DNA of 64,000 nt from a virus, in IMG/VR virus record IMGVR_UViG_3300025889_009691, positions 1-64,000 of that record. One strand, 5' to 3'. This document shows, piece after piece, positions 778 through 62,595 of this stretch. The translations under genes and the position numbers were made by a program. Under the pieces are notes generated by a model, which saw only the letters and a list, made by a program, of their open reading frames with translations, searched no databases and was not told where the DNA came from. How positions within the stretch are numbered: the stretch's first letter is position 1; each line of letters opens with the position of its first letter.

Positions 778-1018
778 TCAACTTGTGTGGAACACCTTGG
801 GCCGCATTGCGGCGGTGTTTGCAATGAATGCTATGGCTATTGTTGGTAGCTCTAGTCTTATTGGTGGTATTGATCCGTGGAAGGCTGCCGTTTTGGCAGG
901 TGCTACCTCTGCTGCGACTGTTATTCAGAAGCTCGCCGCAGCGTATGCTGATGACGGAAAGATCACTGCCGATGAGATTGACGCTGCATTTAGCATGACC
1001 CAGCCCAAGAAAAGTTAA
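764..1018 (+). CDS. holin-like membrane protein
   Basis: Two hydrophobic helices and a C-terminal DDGKITADEIDAAF motif; lies in a cluster of small membrane genes. Confidence 0.55.
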   Translation: MKATNQLVWNTLGRIAAVFAMNAMAIVGSSSLIGGIDPWKAAVLAGATSAATVIQKLAAAYADDGKITADEIDAAFSMTQPKKS

Positions 1019-1121
1019 CTAAAGTTTCTATAAAGGTTCTTTTGGGGGCATGACGACTGTATGGTACAATATTTAAGAGGCAAATAGCCTTTTAAGTATC
1101 CCCTAACAAGGAGAATTGTAA

Positions 1122-1319
1122 ATGGATATGAACATGTACAAGCAGGTTGCTGAACGTGCTGCTATGACATTCATTCAGGCTTTCGCTGCGATGTTTGTTG
1201 TTACGGATATGTCATCAGCCAAGGGTGCTGCTGCCGCTGGCCTAGCTGCTGCCCTTTCAGTACTGAAGTCATTTGCCGCCACCAAAGTTGGCGACAAGTC
1301 ATCCGCTTCACTCGTCTAA
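1122..1319 (+). CDS. putative holin (r1t-like)
   Basis: AERAAMTFIQAF...AAALSVLKSFA pattern typical of r1t-type holins; strong SD AAGGAG. Confidence 0.7.
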   Translation: MDMNMYKQVAERAAMTFIQAFAAMFVVTDMSSAKGAAAAGLAAALSVLKSFAATKVGDKSSASLV

Positions 1320-1336
1320 GTTGTGTTAAGCATCGC

Positions 1337-1366
1337 TTGATCCAACTACAAGCGATACTGTAAACT
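1337..1366 (+). promoter_or_regulatory. sigma70/sigmaA-like promoter for the small RNA candidate
   Basis: TTGATC-18 nt-TAAACT, overlapped by inverted repeat ATCGCTTG/CAAGCGAT (1332-1356). Confidence 0.5.
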
Positions 1367-1371
1367 AAGAC

Positions 1372-1457
1372 TGTTGGGGGATGGCCTTTTGCTCCTTTTG
1401 TGTCAACCCACTAACAAGAAGACCCCCGGTCACGATTGTGACTGGGGGTTTTTCTTT
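1372..1457 (+). ncRNA. candidate small RNA: stem-loop with anti-SD loop (CUCCUU) plus intrinsic terminator
   Basis: Stem 1372-1385/1402-1416 with G-U pairs; loop CTTTTGCTCCTTTTGT; GC-rich terminator hairpin follows. Confidence 0.5.
1416..1457. terminator. intrinsic terminator, probably bidirectional
   Basis: AAGAAGACCCCCGGTCAC-GATT-GTGACTGGGGGTTTTTCTT between convergent transcription units. Confidence 0.8.
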
Positions 1458-1735
1458 GCCCTACGACGCTTAGTAGGAATGTGCTTCAGTCTATCAGGAG
1501 TAATCGATCTCCACTGGCCGTGGCCATGTGAGCCACCCCACAGGTCAATCCATTCACTAGCAGGCGTTAGGTTAGTGTTTACAACGTGGCGTTTGAAAAC
1601 AAACGTTCCACGCTCGCCTTTGATCTTGCACACATCGCCCTTGCCAAGTGTGATCTGACTAGAGATTTGATACTCTTCGCTAATGACCCATCCTTGAGGA
1701 GGGCCGACAGGTTGTTTACTTTTTTTCAAAGCCAT
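1430..1735 (-). CDS. hypothetical phage protein (basic, possible SH3-like beta fold)
   Basis: 101-aa ORF with SD AAGGAG; GDVCKIKGERGTFVF...EWIDLWGG pattern. Confidence 0.65.
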   Translation of the reverse strand: MALKKSKQPVGPPQGWVISEEYQISSQITLGKGDVCKIKGERGTFVFKRHVVNTNLTPASEWIDLWGGSHGHGQWRSITPDRLKHIPTKRRRAKKNPQSQS

Positions 1736-1784
1736 ATGCTTCTCCTTCTTTGCTCAGCAAGGATACTACATATGGTAGCGTTTG

Positions 1785-2759
1785 TCAAATTGTTGCGTAG
1801 ATGGTATCTGCGATTGTCTCTCGGATTTGCTCGTTTTCATCCAAGAAAGCTTTGGTATTGGCACGGCCCTGTCCAATGTTCTCGCCTTTGTAGGCGTACC
1901 ATGCGCCCTTCTTGTCAAGGATACCCATCTCAGCAGCAATGTCCACGATGTCTCCGGTACGGCTGATTCCTTCACCGTATGCAATTTCAAACTCTGCCTG
2001 ACGGAAAGGAGGAGCACACTTGTTCTTGACAACCTTGACTCGTGTCTTATTGCCAGATGCTTCGCCACCGTCCTTCAGCGTTTCGATACGACGAATGTCC
2101 ATCCGAACTGACGCATAGAACTTGAGTGCCTTGCCGCCAGTGGTTACTTCAGGAGAACCGAACATGACACCAATTTTTTCACGCAACTGGTTAATCATGA
2201 TAAGGGTTGTCTTAGAGTGATTAAGGTTAGCTACAATCTTTCGCATCGCCTGCGACATCAGACGAGCGTGCAGGCCAACGTGGCTGTCTCCCATTTCGCC
2301 TTCAATCTCGGCACGAGGAGTGAGCGCAGCAACTGAGTCTACAACTACTACGTCTAGAGCGCCTGATTCAATCAGCTTGTTAGTAATGGTCAGGGCTTGC
2401 TCACCTGTGTCTGGCTGTGCAACCAAAAGATTGTCAATGTCGCATCCGATTGCTTTAGCATACACAGGGTCTAGGGCGTGCTCCGCATCAATGAATGCAC
2501 ACTTGCCACCTTTCTTTTGGGCTTCTGCAATCACATGCAGGGCAATGGTTGTCTTGCCAGAAGACTCAGGTCCGTAGATTTCGGTGACTCGTCCACGAGG
2601 AACACCTCCAACCCCTAGCGCCAAGTCAAGAGCGATAGAGCCGGTTGAAATCGTTTCAATTTGCATTGAAGCAGCGTCGCCTAGACGCATGATGCTTCCA
2701 GCGCCAAACTGCTTTTCAATTTGTCCTAGAGCATCTTCGAGAAGTTTATCTTTATCCAT
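1785..2759 (-). CDS. recA: RecA recombinase
   Basis: [23 protein letters not shown], Walker [40 protein letters not shown]. Confidence 0.98.
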
Positions 2760-2765
2760 GTTTGT

Positions 2766-2809
2766 ATTCTACGGTTTAGGTGGAACGAAGTCAAGTGAGC
2801 GGATAGAAT
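2766..2809. promoter_or_regulatory. divergent promoters with leaderless starts (recA and ORF 2816)
   Basis: Minus strand: TTGACT-17-TAGAAT-acaaac-ATG. Plus strand: TAGAAT-aaacct-ATG. Confidence 0.7.
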
Positions 2810-2815
2810 AAACCT

Positions 2816-3169
2816 ATGAGTAAACGAGGCCCTAAGCGTACTGTCACTAACGCCGTGAAATTTGGCGAATACGGTAATACTATTTGGCATGTTGAGCTTG
2901 AGTGCTCTCACACAGTAGAGACTAAGCGCAAGCCTAAAGTTAATGAAGATAGACTTTGCTGTAAAGTTTGTGTTGCTCCGCCACCCCCTGCTGTCGTGGA
3001 CCCATTTGCGGATGTAGCGCCTTGGGTTGATTATGATCCGATGGATGAGCTGAAGATTAAAGCAACTTTGGCTTCTAAGGTTGGGGTCCCGCTAGACCAA
3101 GTTGAACTTGTAAACGGTACAGCGACAGTGTTTCTTGATGCACAACAACTAAGGAATATTTCAACATGA
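2816..3169 (+). CDS. hypothetical protein, possible Zn-binding N-terminus
   Basis: LECSH...LCCKVC motif; leaderless start; ATGA overlap with the next gene. Confidence 0.6.
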   Translation: MSKRGPKRTVTNAVKFGEYGNTIWHVELECSHTVETKRKPKVNEDRLCCKVCVAPPPPAVVDPFADVAPWVDYDPMDELKIKATLASKVGVPLDQVELVNGTATVFLDAQQLRNIST

Positions 3170-3888
3170 CGGATTTTTTGACAGTTGAAGAAGACGAAGA
3201 CTTTGCAACTTGGGAGCGTTTCAGAGATGCACCTGAAGTTCGTTGGGTGTTCAATAAGTTAGAAGTTGCGTTACATCAAGGATTAGAAGCAGGACCCGCT
3301 GGCTGCGCTCCACAATATGAAGGCTTTTACATTCACCGACCCGTCTACAACCTTTTTGGTATGGGCATTGGTGCAACGAAGTTTTTGTATCTTTCCCAAA
3401 TGGAAGAAGACTTTTTAAACAATGCCGTGGTCCCTCCCGGTAGTTTTTGGTGCGAGTGGCTAGATGGCCCACACCTTTCTATTGACTTTCAAAAAGATTC
3501 TGAAGGTGGCTGGCATACCGTATCAGCATGGGAAGGGTTTCATTCAAGCGACGAGAACTTGACTAGGTTTAGTCATTGGGAAAGACTACCTGAAACAGAT
3601 GTTTCTGATATTCATGAGTGCTCCCATTTTATCAACCTTGTTGACTTACCTGTCAACGGTATCAACATCGAAACTCGGTCAGGGTTTATTACTGAAATTC
3701 ATTTACGTCACGGTAATGATCCATTTGAGGACCTTCCTGTCGGTACACGCATTACGCCCGTTTGGCAAGACATGGACATTCCTGCAGGCGGTGTTTTCAT
3801 GCCGAACCTACACGAAGACCTAGAGAAGTACTCGGCCCACGGTCACCTGTCTGACGTTCGTCGTGGGTTTGTTATAGACGTACCTTAA
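3166..3888 (+). CDS. ATP-grasp-like protein
   Basis: RPVYNLFGMGIGA, FWCEWLDGPHLSIDF and INIE...ITEIHLR resemble ATP-grasp motifs. Confidence 0.5.
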   Translation: MTDFLTVEEDEDFATWERFRDAPEVRWVFNKLEVALHQGLEAGPAGCAPQYEGFYIHRPVYNLFGMGIGATKFLYLSQMEEDFLNNAVVPPGSFWCEWLDGPHLSIDFQKDSEGGWHTVSAWEGFHSSDENLTRFSHWERLPETDVSDIHECSHFINLVDLPVNGINIETRSGFITEIHLRHGNDPFEDLPVGTRITPVWQDMDIPAGGVFMPNLHEDLEKYSAHGHLSDVRRGFVIDVP

Positions 3889-3897
3889 AAAATAAAT

Positions 3898-4230
3898 CTA
3901 GGCTATTAGCAGAAGATAAAGCACTATTTGTAAATAGTGGAGTGCTTGGTCAGGGTAAACATGCCAGTAAGGTTTGGGCTTTCCAGTTTTCCACGGAAGA
4001 AACTGGTAGAAGAATGCGTCTGTTAGCCAGTGCCCTACAGCAAAGTACGCAAATATCCAAGGCGTGACTGTATCTCCCAACCAATACAGGGTAGCGCATA
4101 CAACTCCTGTGTATACCATAACGTGTTCAAAAATTGCAAACAGTCGCTTTGACTTTAACTTTATCAACCAGTCTGGTTGAAGCGCAACATCGGCAAAATG
4201 ATGTGCCGCTAGTAACCATATTAGTCGCAT
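3898..4230 (-). CDS. DUF3307-like membrane protein
   Basis: AHHFADVALQ...EH...GHWLTD...DQALH conserved His/Asp pattern with hydrophobic helices. Confidence 0.75.
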   Translation of the reverse strand: MRLIWLLAAHHFADVALQPDWLIKLKSKRLFAIFEHVMVYTGVVCATLYWLGDTVTPWIFAYFAVGHWLTDAFFYQFLPWKTGKPKPYWHVYPDQALHYLQIVLYLLLIA

Positions 4231-4640
4231 AGTAGTTCATTTCTTATCTGAGTGCTGCTAATTCCTGCTGTGTACTCCGTAAATTCAATAGGTATTCCTA
4301 GTTCAAGAATTGTTTCTTTTCCTGGGAAATCATAGTTGTCATTCCCTCGAATGAAAATAAACTCGTGGTCTGGATAGGCATCAAAAGCTTCTTTGAAAGA
4401 TGCGCTTGGGTCATCTGTGTAGGTGACAAGTACATTGTCAACCAAACCCGTTATTTTTAGGTTGTTCTTTCTGTGATCTAGTGTTTGGATTGGTATTTTG
4501 CCTTTAATGCTCCAACAAGATTCGTCGGAGTGTAAAACTACAACTACAACATCAGCACTAGCTTTCATGTGCTTTAAAAGTTTGATGTGTCCCTCATGAC
4601 ACAAGTCCATTATTGCTGCAGTGAGTGCTACTTTAGCCAT
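4221..4640 (-). CDS. cytidylyltransferase (TagD/glycerol-3-phosphate CTase-like)
   Basis: DLCHEGH (HxGH), VLHSDE, C-terminal YTAGISSTQIR. Confidence 0.88.
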   Translation of the reverse strand: MAKVALTAAIMDLCHEGHIKLLKHMKASADVVVVVLHSDESCWSIKGKIPIQTLDHRKNNLKITGLVDNVLVTYTDDPSASFKEAFDAYPDHEFIFIRGNDNYDFPGKETILELGIPIEFTEYTAGISSTQIRNELLCD

Positions 4641-5161
4641 TTAGTCTTGCCTCCTCTTTGAGGGATGCGCCACGTGTCATACCAATCAGTTAAATAACCA
4701 TCAATATCGTTAGGCACGCTAAATTCGTGACCTAAATAATTTTTGGTTGATAGGGGAGAGACTAGGTGCTTTGGTCTGATTAGATGACCGTCTTCTTTAA
4801 TATTTATTAAAAGTTCAGTATCTGTTGGGTGCGGCCACCAATGAAGCACGTCAAAAACTATGTTTGTGTCCTTATGTACATACGCTGCTTGCATCGGCCT
4901 GTCGCCATCACTGACAACTCTTCCTGCAAAGAACTCTTCTTCTGGTAGTCGTGCTTTATCCCAGTAACCCATAACAGCAATGTCTAGATCGGTGTCATGG
5001 GGAATGAACTCGTTGTCTCTTTCTAGCCCCAGCAACGTTCCTGCAGACAGCCAGTAGTCATCTAAAAACTCAAGTCCACGAAGCAAAACTTCCATGACTG
5101 GCTTGCCCTTTAGGGGCTGTAAAGTGTGTTGTTGCCATTCTAGTTTGATGTTTTCATACAT
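4628..5161 (-). CDS. LicD-family phosphotransferase
   Basis: YWLSAGTLLGLERDNEFIPHDTDLDIA signature; C-terminal PNDIDGYL...W. Confidence 0.88.
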   Translation of the reverse strand: MYENIKLEWQQHTLQPLKGKPVMEVLLRGLEFLDDYWLSAGTLLGLERDNEFIPHDTDLDIAVMGYWDKARLPEEEFFAGRVVSDGDRPMQAAYVHKDTNIVFDVLHWWPHPTDTELLINIKEDGHLIRPKHLVSPLSTKNYLGHEFSVPNDIDGYLTDWYDTWRIPQRGGKTKWLK

Positions 5162-5174
5162 GCGTTTATCCTAC

Positions 5175-5616
5175 TCGTTTTTGGCAGCGTTTTCCCTCCC
5201 TTTCGTGTGGTAGTTGACGCTAACGCACGAGAGGCTGGGACGAACCCAATTGGTTTATTCAAGGCTGTTCACTTCATGGACCCCAAGCACCGCCTATCTT
5301 TTTCAGCGATGCCCACTCTCCCTAGATATGGCTCTAGTAGCCCGTGTGCCGGAACCGCATGGGCGTTTGCTTGTTCCGAACCTGTTCCTCAAGGCTTGAT
5401 GTTCTCCGTGCAGTGACTGGCATCTCGTCAAGGATGTGTGTCCAGTTTATCGTGCGATTCAGATCGTTCCTCTTTGGGCAGGCGTGCCCTCTTGTTTCTT
5501 AAGTGTTAGTACCAGTTGCGTAACGAGTGTAACCCACCGGTCCTTCAGTGAACGTTTATGTCATCGGGATTACCCGGCTGCAGTCTTGTGGCAGTGTGCT
5601 CCTTGTGTAGTAGTTT
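5175..5616 (-). ncRNA. candidate ~450-nt structured non-coding RNA
   Basis: No credible ORF; upstream promoter; long-range helix 5267-5282/5539-5553 and several local stems with minus-strand G-U pairs. Confidence 0.5.
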
Positions 5617-5622
5617 GTGAGT

Positions 5623-5651
5623 ATGCTACTGGCTTCGACGGCGCAGGTCAA
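5623..5651 (-). promoter_or_regulatory. sigma70-like promoter firing into the non-coding region
   Basis: TTGACC-17-TAGCAT on the minus strand. Confidence 0.65.
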
Positions 5652-5729
5652 GGGGTAGGTTTTGGCTTGTCTCCTTGACGGGTGACAGGTATGATATTAC
5701 ACGTATGTTGTTTATAATTAAGGAGATTT

Positions 5730-5954
5730 ATGATTAAACTTTCTAGCCCTGAGTGGTTTGAGAGTGCGCCGTGTCGGGGTAATGACCGAACGTTTTTTTC
5801 GAGCAAGCCGTCGCAACGCAAGAGCGCCGTTAAGGTTTGTGCAGGTTGTACCGCTTCTGCTAAGTGCTTAGATTTTGCAGTCACGAATAAAATCACGATT
5901 GGTGTGTGGGGTGGTAAGACCGGGCCAGAGTTGGACAGGTTAGTTAATTCATGA
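5730..5954 (+). CDS. whiB: WhiB-family transcription factor
   Basis: W...APC...FF...VCAGC...C, GVWGG; SD AAGGAG. Confidence 0.93.
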   Translation: MIKLSSPEWFESAPCRGNDRTFFSSKPSQRKSAVKVCAGCTASAKCLDFAVTNKITIGVWGGKTGPELDRLVNS

Positions 5955-6343
5955 TTTATGATTGGGCTGATGAGTTTGACAGTGATGTGTTAGCAGTTGT
6001 TAAACGTGGGCAGATTGAGGTCACGTTCTTGACTGCTCCACGTGGTGCTATTAATGATAAAGACTACGATCTGGTAATGTGGAAAAAGAAAGAGATGCAG
6101 ATTGTTGTGGCGCAAGAGTATTTAGATGACTATGTGGATGAAGCGATTGCTTCTGAGATAGCATCCACGGTAAGAGAACGTTATGATTCTGATGAGCCTG
6201 CGGATGTGCGGGAGATGGCGATCAAGTTGTTGGCTAAGGAGCTTGATGCAATATTGAATGATGTTATATTTGTGTACTCAAATGATCCTGATGAGGTCAG
6301 TTTTGAGTCTGCGTTGAAGCGTTTACTAGATGATGAGGCTTGA
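5951..6343 (+). CDS. hypothetical acidic protein
   Basis: 130-aa ORF, ATGA-coupled to whiB. Confidence 0.7.
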   Translation: MIYDWADEFDSDVLAVVKRGQIEVTFLTAPRGAINDKDYDLVMWKKKEMQIVVAQEYLDDYVDEAIASEIASTVRERYDSDEPADVREMAIKLLAKELDAILNDVIFVYSNDPDEVSFESALKRLLDDEA

Positions 6344-11236: not shown

Positions 11237-11617
11237 ATGCCTGCAAAGTACGGCCATCAAGATAAAGCCAAAGCCACGAAACTGCATAGTTTGCTAGTAC
11301 GCACTAGAGATAATTTCACTTGTCGATGGTGTGGTGTCTCTAAGAAAGATGGTAAGCAGATTCAGTGTGCACATATTATTTCTCGTAGTGTGTCTGCTAC
11401 TAGGACTGATGAGCGTAATGCCGTTGCTTTGTGTGCGTCGTGTCATTGGAAGCAAAGCAAGAATCCGATACTTTGGTCTAGGTGGATAGAGCAAGAGTTA
11501 GGTTCAGATCATATTGATGATTTGATTGAGCGAGGCGTCCCTGGCGTTGCAGTTGATTGGTCATTGGAGGTTGTTCGTCTACAATCTGCCCTTGACGATT
11601 TGGCTAGTAATGGGTAG
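11237..11617 (+). CDS. NinG/HNH-like nuclease
   Basis: VRTRDNFTCRWCG...QCAHIISR...TRTDERNAVALCASCH. Confidence 0.8.
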   Translation: MPAKYGHQDKAKATKLHSLLVRTRDNFTCRWCGVSKKDGKQIQCAHIISRSVSATRTDERNAVALCASCHWKQSKNPILWSRWIEQELGSDHIDDLIERGVPGVAVDWSLEVVRLQSALDDLASNG

Positions 11618-11626
11618 AATACAGTT

Positions 11627-11977
11627 ATGAATTATTCCCGCACGGCACCTATCAGTTCAGTTGAAGTTGAATCTGAGTTGATTCGTCTTACAGCTGATAT
11701 TGAGTCTGAGACAGAAGCGTTTGAAACGTTGGCAAAAGATCATGCTGTAAAAGAAGCTGAGTATAAGAAGCAGTGGTTTAAAGAATATCTTGCTGCTGAA
11801 GGTGCTGTAAAGCAAAAAGAAAGCTGGGCCGGGTATAAGACCAGCGAATTGTACTATGACGCACAAGTTGCGGAGGCGCTAGTTAAAGCCAAGCGAGAAA
11901 AGTTACATTCTTTGAGAACTGCTTGTGACGCTTTGCGGACTATTGCTGCAAATGTAAGATCGCAAGTTAAATTTTAA
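11627..11977 (+). CDS. hypothetical helical protein (leaderless)
   Basis: TTGACG-17-TAGAAT-6 nt-ATG; coiled-coil character. Confidence 0.7.
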   Translation: MNYSRTAPISSVEVESELIRLTADIESETEAFETLAKDHAVKEAEYKKQWFKEYLAAEGAVKQKESWAGYKTSELYYDAQVAEALVKAKREKLHSLRTACDALRTIAANVRSQVKF

Positions 11978-62035: not shown

Positions 62036-62079
62036 CCATAGGCTTGACAGACTAACCTGCTTTGGGGTAGACTACCTCT

Positions 62080-62595
62080 ATGGATAAAAAGATTGTCAGA
62101 GAAGCCGTAGCACCCGCTGCGATCCCGACTTTAGCGGAGAATACGCATCGGGCTATTGAGCTACTGATTGCAAAAGACGGCGTGTTCCGAACCGACGAGT
62201 CTTGGGTGTACACTGCTCTGCAGCCGCTAATTAAAAGCGGCCACGTTGACGTTGACGGAACTACCATTTCAATCGGTAAGGACTTTGAACCGTTCCTGCT
62301 AAACATGGCTGACCGTTCTGCAATTTACAACACAACTCTAAAGAACTACAGACAGTTGGTTGCGTCTAATGCTGAAAAGTATGATGTAACCAATTTTGAC
62401 GTTATGGACAAAGTTGCTTCAATACATAACACTGATGAGAAAATTGTTTACCTCACAAGTGTTTTGGCTGAAACTTTCGGCAAGCTAGAAGAAGCTTTGA
62501 ATCGAACTTCTTATTTGGAAAACCTTTGTAAAGAGATGGATATTTCGTTATCTGTCATGGAGTCTATGACTTTTGATGAGAGTTCTGACAGTTAA
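62080..62595 (+). CDS. hypothetical protein (leaderless)
   Basis: TTGACA-18-TAGACT-6 nt-ATG. Confidence 0.7.
   Translation: MDKKIVREAVAPAAIPTLAENTHRAIELLIAKDGVFRTDESWVYTALQPLIKSGHVDVDGTTISIGKDFEPFLLNMADRSAIYNTTLKNYRQLVASNAEKYDVTNFDVMDKVASIHNTDEKIVYLTSVLAETFGKLEEALNRTSYLENLCKEMDISLSVMESMTFDESSDS

Follow-up and report, generated by a model that had tools for sequence, protein, structure and literature searches.

Near the start of the virus record IMGVR_UViG_3300025889_009691, between a holin gene on the plus strand and a convergent gene on the minus strand coding for a DUF7246 protein, lies a compact element that is, with high probability, a real small-RNA (sRNA) gene. The analyzed window comprises the first 64 kb (64,000 nucleotides, nt) of this 90,291-base-pair (bp) IMG/VR virus record (G000), and positions are those of the window unless prefixed by G000. 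The evidence for an RNA gene lies in a promoter whose key bases and spacing are retained across relatives, a statistically supported fold, covarying stems, the occurrence of one copy directly after the holin gene and the lack of a conserved open reading frame (ORF). A discrete sRNA of ~85 nt with an exposed loop of the anti-Shine-Dalgarno (anti-SD) type, as proposed in an initial annotation of the window, is thus very probable on comparative evidence. As judged by sequence comparison, it represents an sRNA family that had not been catalogued before and whose occurrence is limited to a single clade of uncultured, myovirus-like phages probably infecting Actinomycetota. As to its action, the explanation that we favor, with a confidence just short of even, is that of a base-pairing antisense regulator, which would occlude the initiation regions of a few specific messages rather than those of all SD-led genes. 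The element can be dissected into the following parts:

Positions 1337-1366, plus strand: sRNA promoter, with the -35 hexamer TTGATC (1337-1342), an 18-nt spacer and the -10 hexamer TAAACT (1361-1366)
Positions 1373-1457, plus strand: predicted sRNA of ~85 nt, with a presumptive start at G1373 and its 3' end within the U tract
Positions 1373-1416, plus strand: hairpin HP2, with the 5' arm GUUGGGGGAUGG; RNAfold pairs 1372-1386 with 1400-1416
Positions 1387-1399, plus strand: exposed loop UUUUGCUCCUUUU of 13 nt, the most conserved segment of the RNA, sharing CUCCUUU with the 3' tail of 16S ribosomal RNA
Positions 1418-1457, both strands: bidirectional intrinsic terminator, with a 16-bp hairpin (1418-1453), a GC core (1423-1433/1438-1448) and a U tract (1449-1457)
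Positions 1332-1356, plus strand: hairpin HP1, predicted by RNAfold right after the holin stop codon, with the arms ATCGCTTG and CAAGCGAT and a 9-nt loop

Searches of viral contigs with both flanking proteins recovered 16 and 57 loci, and 16 distinct element sequences were compared. At every locus of the closer clade the ~140 nt past the holin stop codon are homologous, and every related viral contig retrieved carries one copy of the element, always directly after the holin gene. In all 16 distinct sequences the promoter conforms to TTGnnn and TAnnnT separated by 17 or 18 nt and followed by 6 nt and GUU(A/G)G, with other positions varying and the -10 hexamer taking forms such as TAAACT, TAATAT, TAGTAT, TATAAT, TAGAAT, TAAGAT, and TATTAT. 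The TTGATC-18-TAAACT promoter of the initial annotation is present in the window and is one instance of this retained geometry. We infer that transcription starts at G1373, since this is the seventh base counted from the -10 hexamer, a spacing identical to that of the A of the ATG in the leaderless genes of this genome. A generic consensus scan listed neither this promoter (8 of 12 matches, under the cut-off) nor the terminator, so that the case for both is built on the relatives.

The 141-nt stretch spanning the element folds with a z-score of -5.35 (0 of 200 shuffles as stable), and the minus-strand fold is less stable (z = -3.65). The HP2 stem contains two G-U pairs in RNAfold's prediction (G1376-U1412 and G1384-U1403), which are possible on the plus strand only and therefore assign the structure to that strand. 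The stem described in the initial annotation is confirmed, with its loop having 13 nt by RNAfold and reaching the proposed 16 nt when a weak closing pair is included. In 15 of the 16 homologs the minimum-free-energy structure again comprises a 5' hairpin, whose loop is large and open, and then a terminator. A covariance model built from the homologs (R1) recovers one copy per related record (48-90 bits, E-values of 1e-9 to 1e-20), and also detects the distant L016/L017 pair, in which the DUF7246 protein retains only 59% identity. In the model-based alignment 87.7% of the stem cells are paired and 12 of the 29 pairs are changed on both sides. The covariation score is 0.364, a value reached by none of 500 shuffles, which score 0.243, whereas slid controls do not rise above 0.168; the alignment was fitted to R1, which somewhat favors structure, and the independent single-sequence folds agree. 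The intrinsic terminator, also recognized in the initial annotation, contributes the second helix, which is paired in 94.8% of cells and has 4 pairs changed on both sides.

The loop has a predicted probability of ~0.9-1.0 of being unpaired and is nearly invariant in 13 of the 16 distinct sequences, with conservation extending beyond CUCCUU over a whole 15-nt stretch. The variants are ACUCC in L035/L041, CCGCUCCGUUG in L016/L017, and UUUGCUCUUA in L039/L040; the 16S-like core is thus reduced in the second of these pairs and lost in the third. A loop that is both predicted to be open and the most conserved part of the RNA points to an antisense mode of action.

The terminator would be common to the sRNA and holin transcripts on the plus strand and to the DUF7246 gene on the minus strand, its stem encompassing the final codons of the latter together with the stop codon (1430-1432). 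Upstream of it, HP1 overlaps the -35 hexamer and the spacer of the sRNA promoter. The arms of HP1 vary jointly in relatives (ATCG/CGAT, CACC/GGTG, GGAC/GTCC), its G-U pairs occur only on the plus strand, and it is not clearly retained in the distant relative L016. HP1 is probably a terminator devoid of a U tract or a 3' stabilizer of the holin transcript, and possibly an operator. The missing U tract implies that holin transcripts probably read through to the terminator at 1418-1457, a point that, together with the silence of the generic promoter scan, would suit an explanation with no separate gene at all, namely a structured 3' untranslated region (UTR) and shared terminator of the holin operon, accompanied by functionless promoter-like hexamers. 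We regard this as improbable, because the TTG...TAnnnT hexamers, their fixed spacing and their fixed distance to the base of the hairpin survive in 16 diverged sequences, because L016 keeps the promoter geometry although the surrounding sequence differs, and because a plain 3' stabilizer needs no invariant 15-nt loop. Even if the element were a 3' UTR, its loop and 5' arm might still exert an effect as part of the holin transcript.

The initial annotation had seen no credible ORF here, and none is conserved in the relatives: ORFs of 30 and 94 amino acids on the plus strand are not shared across them, and the ATG at 1381 is replaced by ATT or falls inside TAA or TAG. On the minus strand an AAGGAG occurs with no start codon after it. 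A pseudoknot between the loop and the linker, checked by eye, was rejected as its pairing is inconsistent among lineages.

With respect to distribution, no Rfam family reached its gathering score over the 64-kb window, and a relaxed search (E up to 5) of positions 1000-6000 gave only chance matches of the terminator type (NsiR1 with 22 bits against the 39 needed, and P37). The exact loop-plus-terminator pattern has no match in 185,579 species genomes, and in viral contigs occurs in 13 contigs only, all of them already known. Scans with R1 likewise came up empty, both for the holin loci farther removed, L043-L074, and for 5 Actinomycetota genomes.

The genes flanking the element are:

Positions 1122-1319, plus strand: holin gene, 65 amino acids (Pfam Phage_r1t_holin, 33.7 bits with a cut-off of 26.9; PHROG 443 holin)
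Positions 1430-1735, minus strand: DUF7246 gene, 101 amino acids, convergent to the sRNA and holin genes and followed by a RecA/UvsX-like gene

The record as a whole is an estimated ~61% complete, has 47.5% G+C, and codes in the window for portal, protease, capsid, sheath, and terminase genes of the myovirus type. The isolate phages nearest by the terminase and DUF7246 proteins infect Gordonia, Arthrobacter, Curtobacterium, and Microbacterium; blastn against isolate phages returned zero matches, so that protein searches alone provide this placement. The phage RecA (1785-2759, minus strand) is 66-71% identical to Actinomycetota RecA proteins, with the matches at the top of the listing being mostly from metagenome-assembled genomes of Acidimicrobiia. 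The hosts of the nearest isolates and the RecA similarity together make an actinobacterial host probable, as a lead rather than a proof. ARAGORN found neither transfer RNA (tRNA) nor transfer-messenger RNA genes over the 64-kb window. Beyond the window and outside that run, GGTTCGAGTCCCACC at about G000:68020-68055, upstream of an ORF at G000:68056, resembles the 3' part of a tRNA gene.

Under the favored explanation of antisense action on a few specific messages, the foremost candidate target is the adjacent holin message:

Positions 1098-1124, plus strand: holin translation-initiation region, with AUCCCCUAAC (1098-1107), the SD sequence AAGGAG (1108-1113) and the ATG at 1122

The holin leader is organized as an extended -10 promoter, a small covarying hairpin, the motif AUCCCCUAAC-AAGGAGAA and the ATG. 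Of 10 lineages, 9 carry the motif unchanged, a conservation reaching well past the needs of an SD sequence, and its AUCCCCUAAC portion, adjoining the SD, has its complement in the 5' arm GUU(A/G)GGGGAU of the sRNA. This complementarity spans 9-14 bp in 8 of the 10 lineages, with contiguous pairs numbering 11 bp in this genome, 12 bp in L042, 13 bp in L030, 10 bp in L035/L041, 9 bp in L039, 10 bp with a bulge in the L029 type, and 14 bp in L016, the most distant. The holin leader of L016 differs in sequence from the cis partner of the 5' arm in the hairpin, yet retains those 14 bp. When leader and sRNA are aligned, the 14 proposed pairs are formed in 81% of cells, against 39-56% in slid controls, and pairing of the 10-bp core extends to 13-17 of the 17 sequences. 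When entire records were searched with the 5' arm, the holin leader came out first among the non-self sites of G001, G002, G008, and G013. The complementarity and the invariable position of the sRNA directly after the holin gene make the holin message the best conserved candidate, one that we advance tentatively and hold to be possible rather than probable. The initial annotation had likewise named the adjacent holin as a target, which appears reasonable, with the difference that the better complementarity resides in the 5' arm of the sRNA and not in its loop.

Mechanistically, the ~85-nt RNA would be transcribed independently from its own promoter and ended by the terminator; its 5' arm would pair with AUCCCCUAAC next to the holin SD, and CUCCUU in the loop would contact the SD itself. 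The pairing may take place in trans or, given that the sRNA lies in the 3' region of the holin gene, within a read-through holin transcript.

Several observations weigh against this proposal. The L023 group and L034 show only weak complementarity, and the holin leader ranks only seventh to eighth in the whole-record scans of G000 and G006 and about thirtieth in three others. Moreover, the complementarity has to be called conserved rather than covarying, as there is one doubly changed pair and shuffles are not exceeded; that single compensatory change is an AU-to-GC in L035/L041, at a position unpaired within the hairpin. The 5' arm is also locked in a stable stem, and its cofolding with the holin leader of G000 yields a net gain of only -1.6 kcal/mol. 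Finally, the sRNA 3' arm and its GA-rich linker resemble the holin leader (CCCUAAC plus purines) in all lineages, a likeness that could merely record a duplication; it fits either a duplication origin or a built-in competitor.

Two features of the holin leader deserve a mention of their own. Its 1040-1121 region has the extended -10 promoter TGGTACAAT with no clear -35, unlike the leaderless-type promoters of this phage, which suggests that the holin promoter belongs to a different class, perhaps a late one. The stem of the leader hairpin covaries among relatives (GAGGCAAAUAGCCUU, GAAGGAAUUCCUUC, GAGACAGAUUGUCUU).

A second set of potential targets comes from ribosome-binding sites (RBSs) complementary to the loop. 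In G000 the only long complement is a perfect 15-nt match, CACAAAAGGAGCAAA, at G000:89164-89178, which forms the RBS of an ORF at G000:89182 (99 amino acids, outside the window) with no confident Pfam or PHROG match; just 2 of 500 control loops with shuffled flanks and a retained CUCC did as well. In G004 a 14-nt match lies at the RBS of a lipoprotein-like gene and includes the base by which the loop of that lineage differs (2 of 500 controls as long), and in G003 a 13-nt match lies at the thyX RBS (15 of 500 controls as long). The orthologs of these matched genes lack the match, and in nine other records the loop matches to RBSs are no better than those of flank-shuffled controls; hence, these long matches are lineage-specific candidates at best. 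Separately, an AAGGAGC RBS at G000:76770-76789 precedes a 260-amino-acid ORF with no confident Pfam or PHROG match.

Neither these RBS matches nor the neighboring RNA considered below provide a conserved partner for the invariant 15-nt loop, which also counts against antisense action on phage messages. The lack of a conserved phage target, along with the copy of the holin-leader pattern that the 3' arm and GA-rich linker carry in every lineage, would accord with a role directed elsewhere, i.e., as a regulator of host messages or as a decoy for an RNA-binding protein recognizing the holin-type leader or the 16S-like tail. We consider such a role rather unlikely: the 13-mer CAAAAGGAGCAAA, the complement of the loop core, shows no enrichment across 401 Acidimicrobiia genomes (14 occurrences against 9 for a reversed control), and no candidate protein emerged.

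The neighboring RNA in question is an ORF-less transcript of ~450 nt predicted on the minus strand at about 5170-5651, whose promoter and body are kept in all records reaching that far:

Positions 5596-5651, minus strand: promoter (TTGACC 5651-5646, TAGCAT 5628-5623) and SD-like 5' box CUACACAAGGAGCAC (5610-5596) of the large RNA, a candidate partner of the sRNA

Its promoter reads TTGACC-17-TAGCAT, no start codon follows its 5' box (consensus ACAGAAGGAGCAAAC), and it matched no family in a relaxed Rfam search of positions 1000-6000. In distant relatives it is 77-83% identical over ~440 nt and thus better conserved than the neighboring DUF7246 (101 amino acids) and holin proteins, which are only ~59-75% identical. 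We therefore weighed whether the sRNA might be the partner of this RNA, as its regulator or as one half of a sponge pair, with the loop pairing to the SD-like box. A distance of 8-12 nt separates the box from the predicted 5' end in each of the 14 records where it occurs (13 rows plus G002), and the loop-to-box duplex of 8-15 bp ranks first among non-self sites in G003, G008, and G009, second in G005, G007, and G015, and fourth in G002 and G010. In G002, where the loop has diverged, a register shift (GAGCAAACUA) preserves 10-12 bp, and an A-U to G-C change in L016 is compensatory. Nevertheless, we judge the partnership to be of low probability. The duplex is weak in the very lineage of this genome, with 8 contiguous bp and ranks of 14-28 (G000, G001, G004, G006), and the one compensatory change is set against two non-compensatory ones (both sides changed to A opposite A in the L035 type, and C opposite A in the L023 type), leaving no consistent covariation. 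In addition, the predicted fold of the large RNA engages most of the GGAGC of the box in internal pairs, and a match to an anti-SD loop would be expected of any SD-like box.

Returning to the holin message, these strands can be combined in a speculative and rather doubtful scheme, to which we nonetheless give more weight than to the partnership with the large RNA: an RNA-based lysis clock, in which the sRNA, made from a host-type promoter and present also in the 3' region of the holin transcript, would silence the holin message via its 5' arm and anti-SD loop, with its 3' arm serving as a built-in competitor. Such a device would resemble a type I antitoxin and might be cross-wired to the ~450-nt RNA.

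Finally, the initial annotation had read the loop as part of a possible global switch between SD-led and leaderless translation, in which it would mimic the 3' tail of 16S rRNA, bind SD sequences generally and so favor leaderless messages. The premise that both kinds of genes are abundant is borne out. In the window, 8 matches to the strict leaderless pattern TTGA-N19-20-TANNNT-N6-ATG compare with 0.40 expected (20-fold; 0 of 100 shuffles reach 8), and a looser scan gives ~15 leaderless starts in the 90-kb record. The underlying architecture, TTGAC-17/18-TAnnnT-6 nt-ATG (e.g., at 2757-2794 on the minus strand and at 11592-11629 and 62044-62082 on the plus strand), is typical of Actinomycetota and their phages. 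Conversely, ~25 genes have SD sequences of the AAGGAG type, including, as had been claimed, those for the holin, capsid, tube, and protease (AAGGAG/GGAG). The accompanying division into leaderless non-structural and SD-led structural genes does not hold, since the structural module, too, contains units that open with a leaderless start (33220, 40727, 41124, 44618, 47490, 50677, and 62080); the contrast is one between the first and the later genes of a unit, rather than between early and late genes.

The 16S tail itself, as read in two Acidimicrobiia genomes, is GGAUCACCUCCUUUCU and shares CUCCUUU with the loop, whose U-rich flanks would also suit the A-rich contexts of the RBSs. Yet the base 5' of the CUCC is conserved as G or A in the loop (GCUCC or ACUCC, never CCUCC), in place of the C of 16S, and no conserved CCUCC copy is found: CUCCUUU is present in most sequences, CUCC in L016/L017, and only GCUCUUA in L039/L040, with the gene being kept nevertheless. 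A typical phage RBS, uAAGGAGa, would form only ~6 contiguous pairs with the loop, and its cofolding brings no net gain; as cofolding is unable to model loop kissing, little weight attaches to near-zero values for SD sites this short. The holin message, for its part, is better matched by the 5' arm of the sRNA than by the loop. Further, with leaderless genes standing first in their units, structural ones included, a general block of SD sequences would hit the internal operon genes of the phage itself and so cripple its downstream genes, and we infer that the sRNA would have to reach ribosome-like levels. A global competitor is accordingly very improbable, the least likely of the alternatives, and the switch is not upheld.

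The potential significance of the element lies in its setting. Lysis timing is normally explained by proteins, namely holins and antiholins, and many messages of Actinomycetota are leaderless. To our knowledge, the sRNAs of lytic phages of Actinomycetota are almost unexplored, and we know of no Hfq-type chaperone in this phylum. A conserved RNA gene fixed beside a holin gene and complementary to the holin initiation region offers a concrete and testable case of lysis control by RNA, and the lysis clock, if true, would amount to control of a phage holin in the manner of a type I antitoxin. More generally, the element provides a well-supported new sRNA family of a known mechanistic kind, in which a specific-target mode of action can be tested against global competition.

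The phage sRNA displays two general hallmarks of trans-acting base-pairing sRNAs, viz., a predicted promoter and intrinsic terminator of its own with no ORF, and a conserved, putatively single-stranded seed. Exposed pyrimidine loops pairing with SD regions are known from RsaE/RoxS, RNAIII, and Cuckoo/CcsR, which have several C-rich motifs per RNA; their folds differ from that of the phage sRNA, which matches none of them in Rfam at either gathering or relaxed thresholds. Comparison with curated Rfam families, including RsaE, 6C, Cuckoo/ar14, and csRNA, placed it in none. In working principle four systems come nearest by analogy: the csRNAs, 6C, the 5'-3' UTR pairing of icaR, and the type I toxin-antitoxin pairs.

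The cia-dependent small RNAs (csRNAs) of Streptococcus are ~50-200 nt in length, have their own promoter and one or two stem-loops including a terminator, and expose an unpaired anti-SD stretch thought to block initiation (PMC3091779). The promoter, terminator, and unpaired anti-SD stretch find counterparts in the phage element; however, csRNAs carry their anti-SD between stem-loops and linked to an anti-AUG (CAU), whereas the phage motif occupies an apical loop with no anti-start codon (PMC3091779). The csRNAs are moreover encoded by the host and driven by CiaR, and bear no sequence or Rfam relationship to the phage sRNA (PMC3091779). The 6C sRNA (B11) of Actinobacteria, found in the probable host phylum of the phage, pairs with several messages via pyrimidine-rich hairpin loops with no chaperone (PMC6486639). 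It shares such loops with the phage sRNA, but has two C-rich ones and is chromosomal and widely conserved, in contrast to the U-rich phage loop with its single CUCC and no Rfam match (PMC6486639).

In the icaR message of Staphylococcus aureus, an anti-SD motif 3' of the coding region can pair with the message's own ribosome-binding region (PMC3868564). The phage element is similarly situated in the 3' region of the holin gene and complementary to the holin leader and SD; it differs in having its own conserved promoter and in its match of only 6 nt to the SD core, with the longer 10-bp match upstream of the SD (PMC3868564). Lastly, type I toxin-antitoxin systems couple a small membrane toxin with an RNA antitoxin (reviewed in PMC6563280). 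Here, the phage sRNA gene stands in tandem on the same strand, as opposed to an antisense or overlapping arrangement, its complementarity spans only 9-14 bp, and the protein is an ordinary holin (Pfam r1t holin) of a lysis cassette (PMC6563280). The likeness to these systems consists in the pairing of a gene for a 65-amino-acid membrane-damaging protein with an adjacent sRNA gene complementary to its initiation region (PMC6563280).

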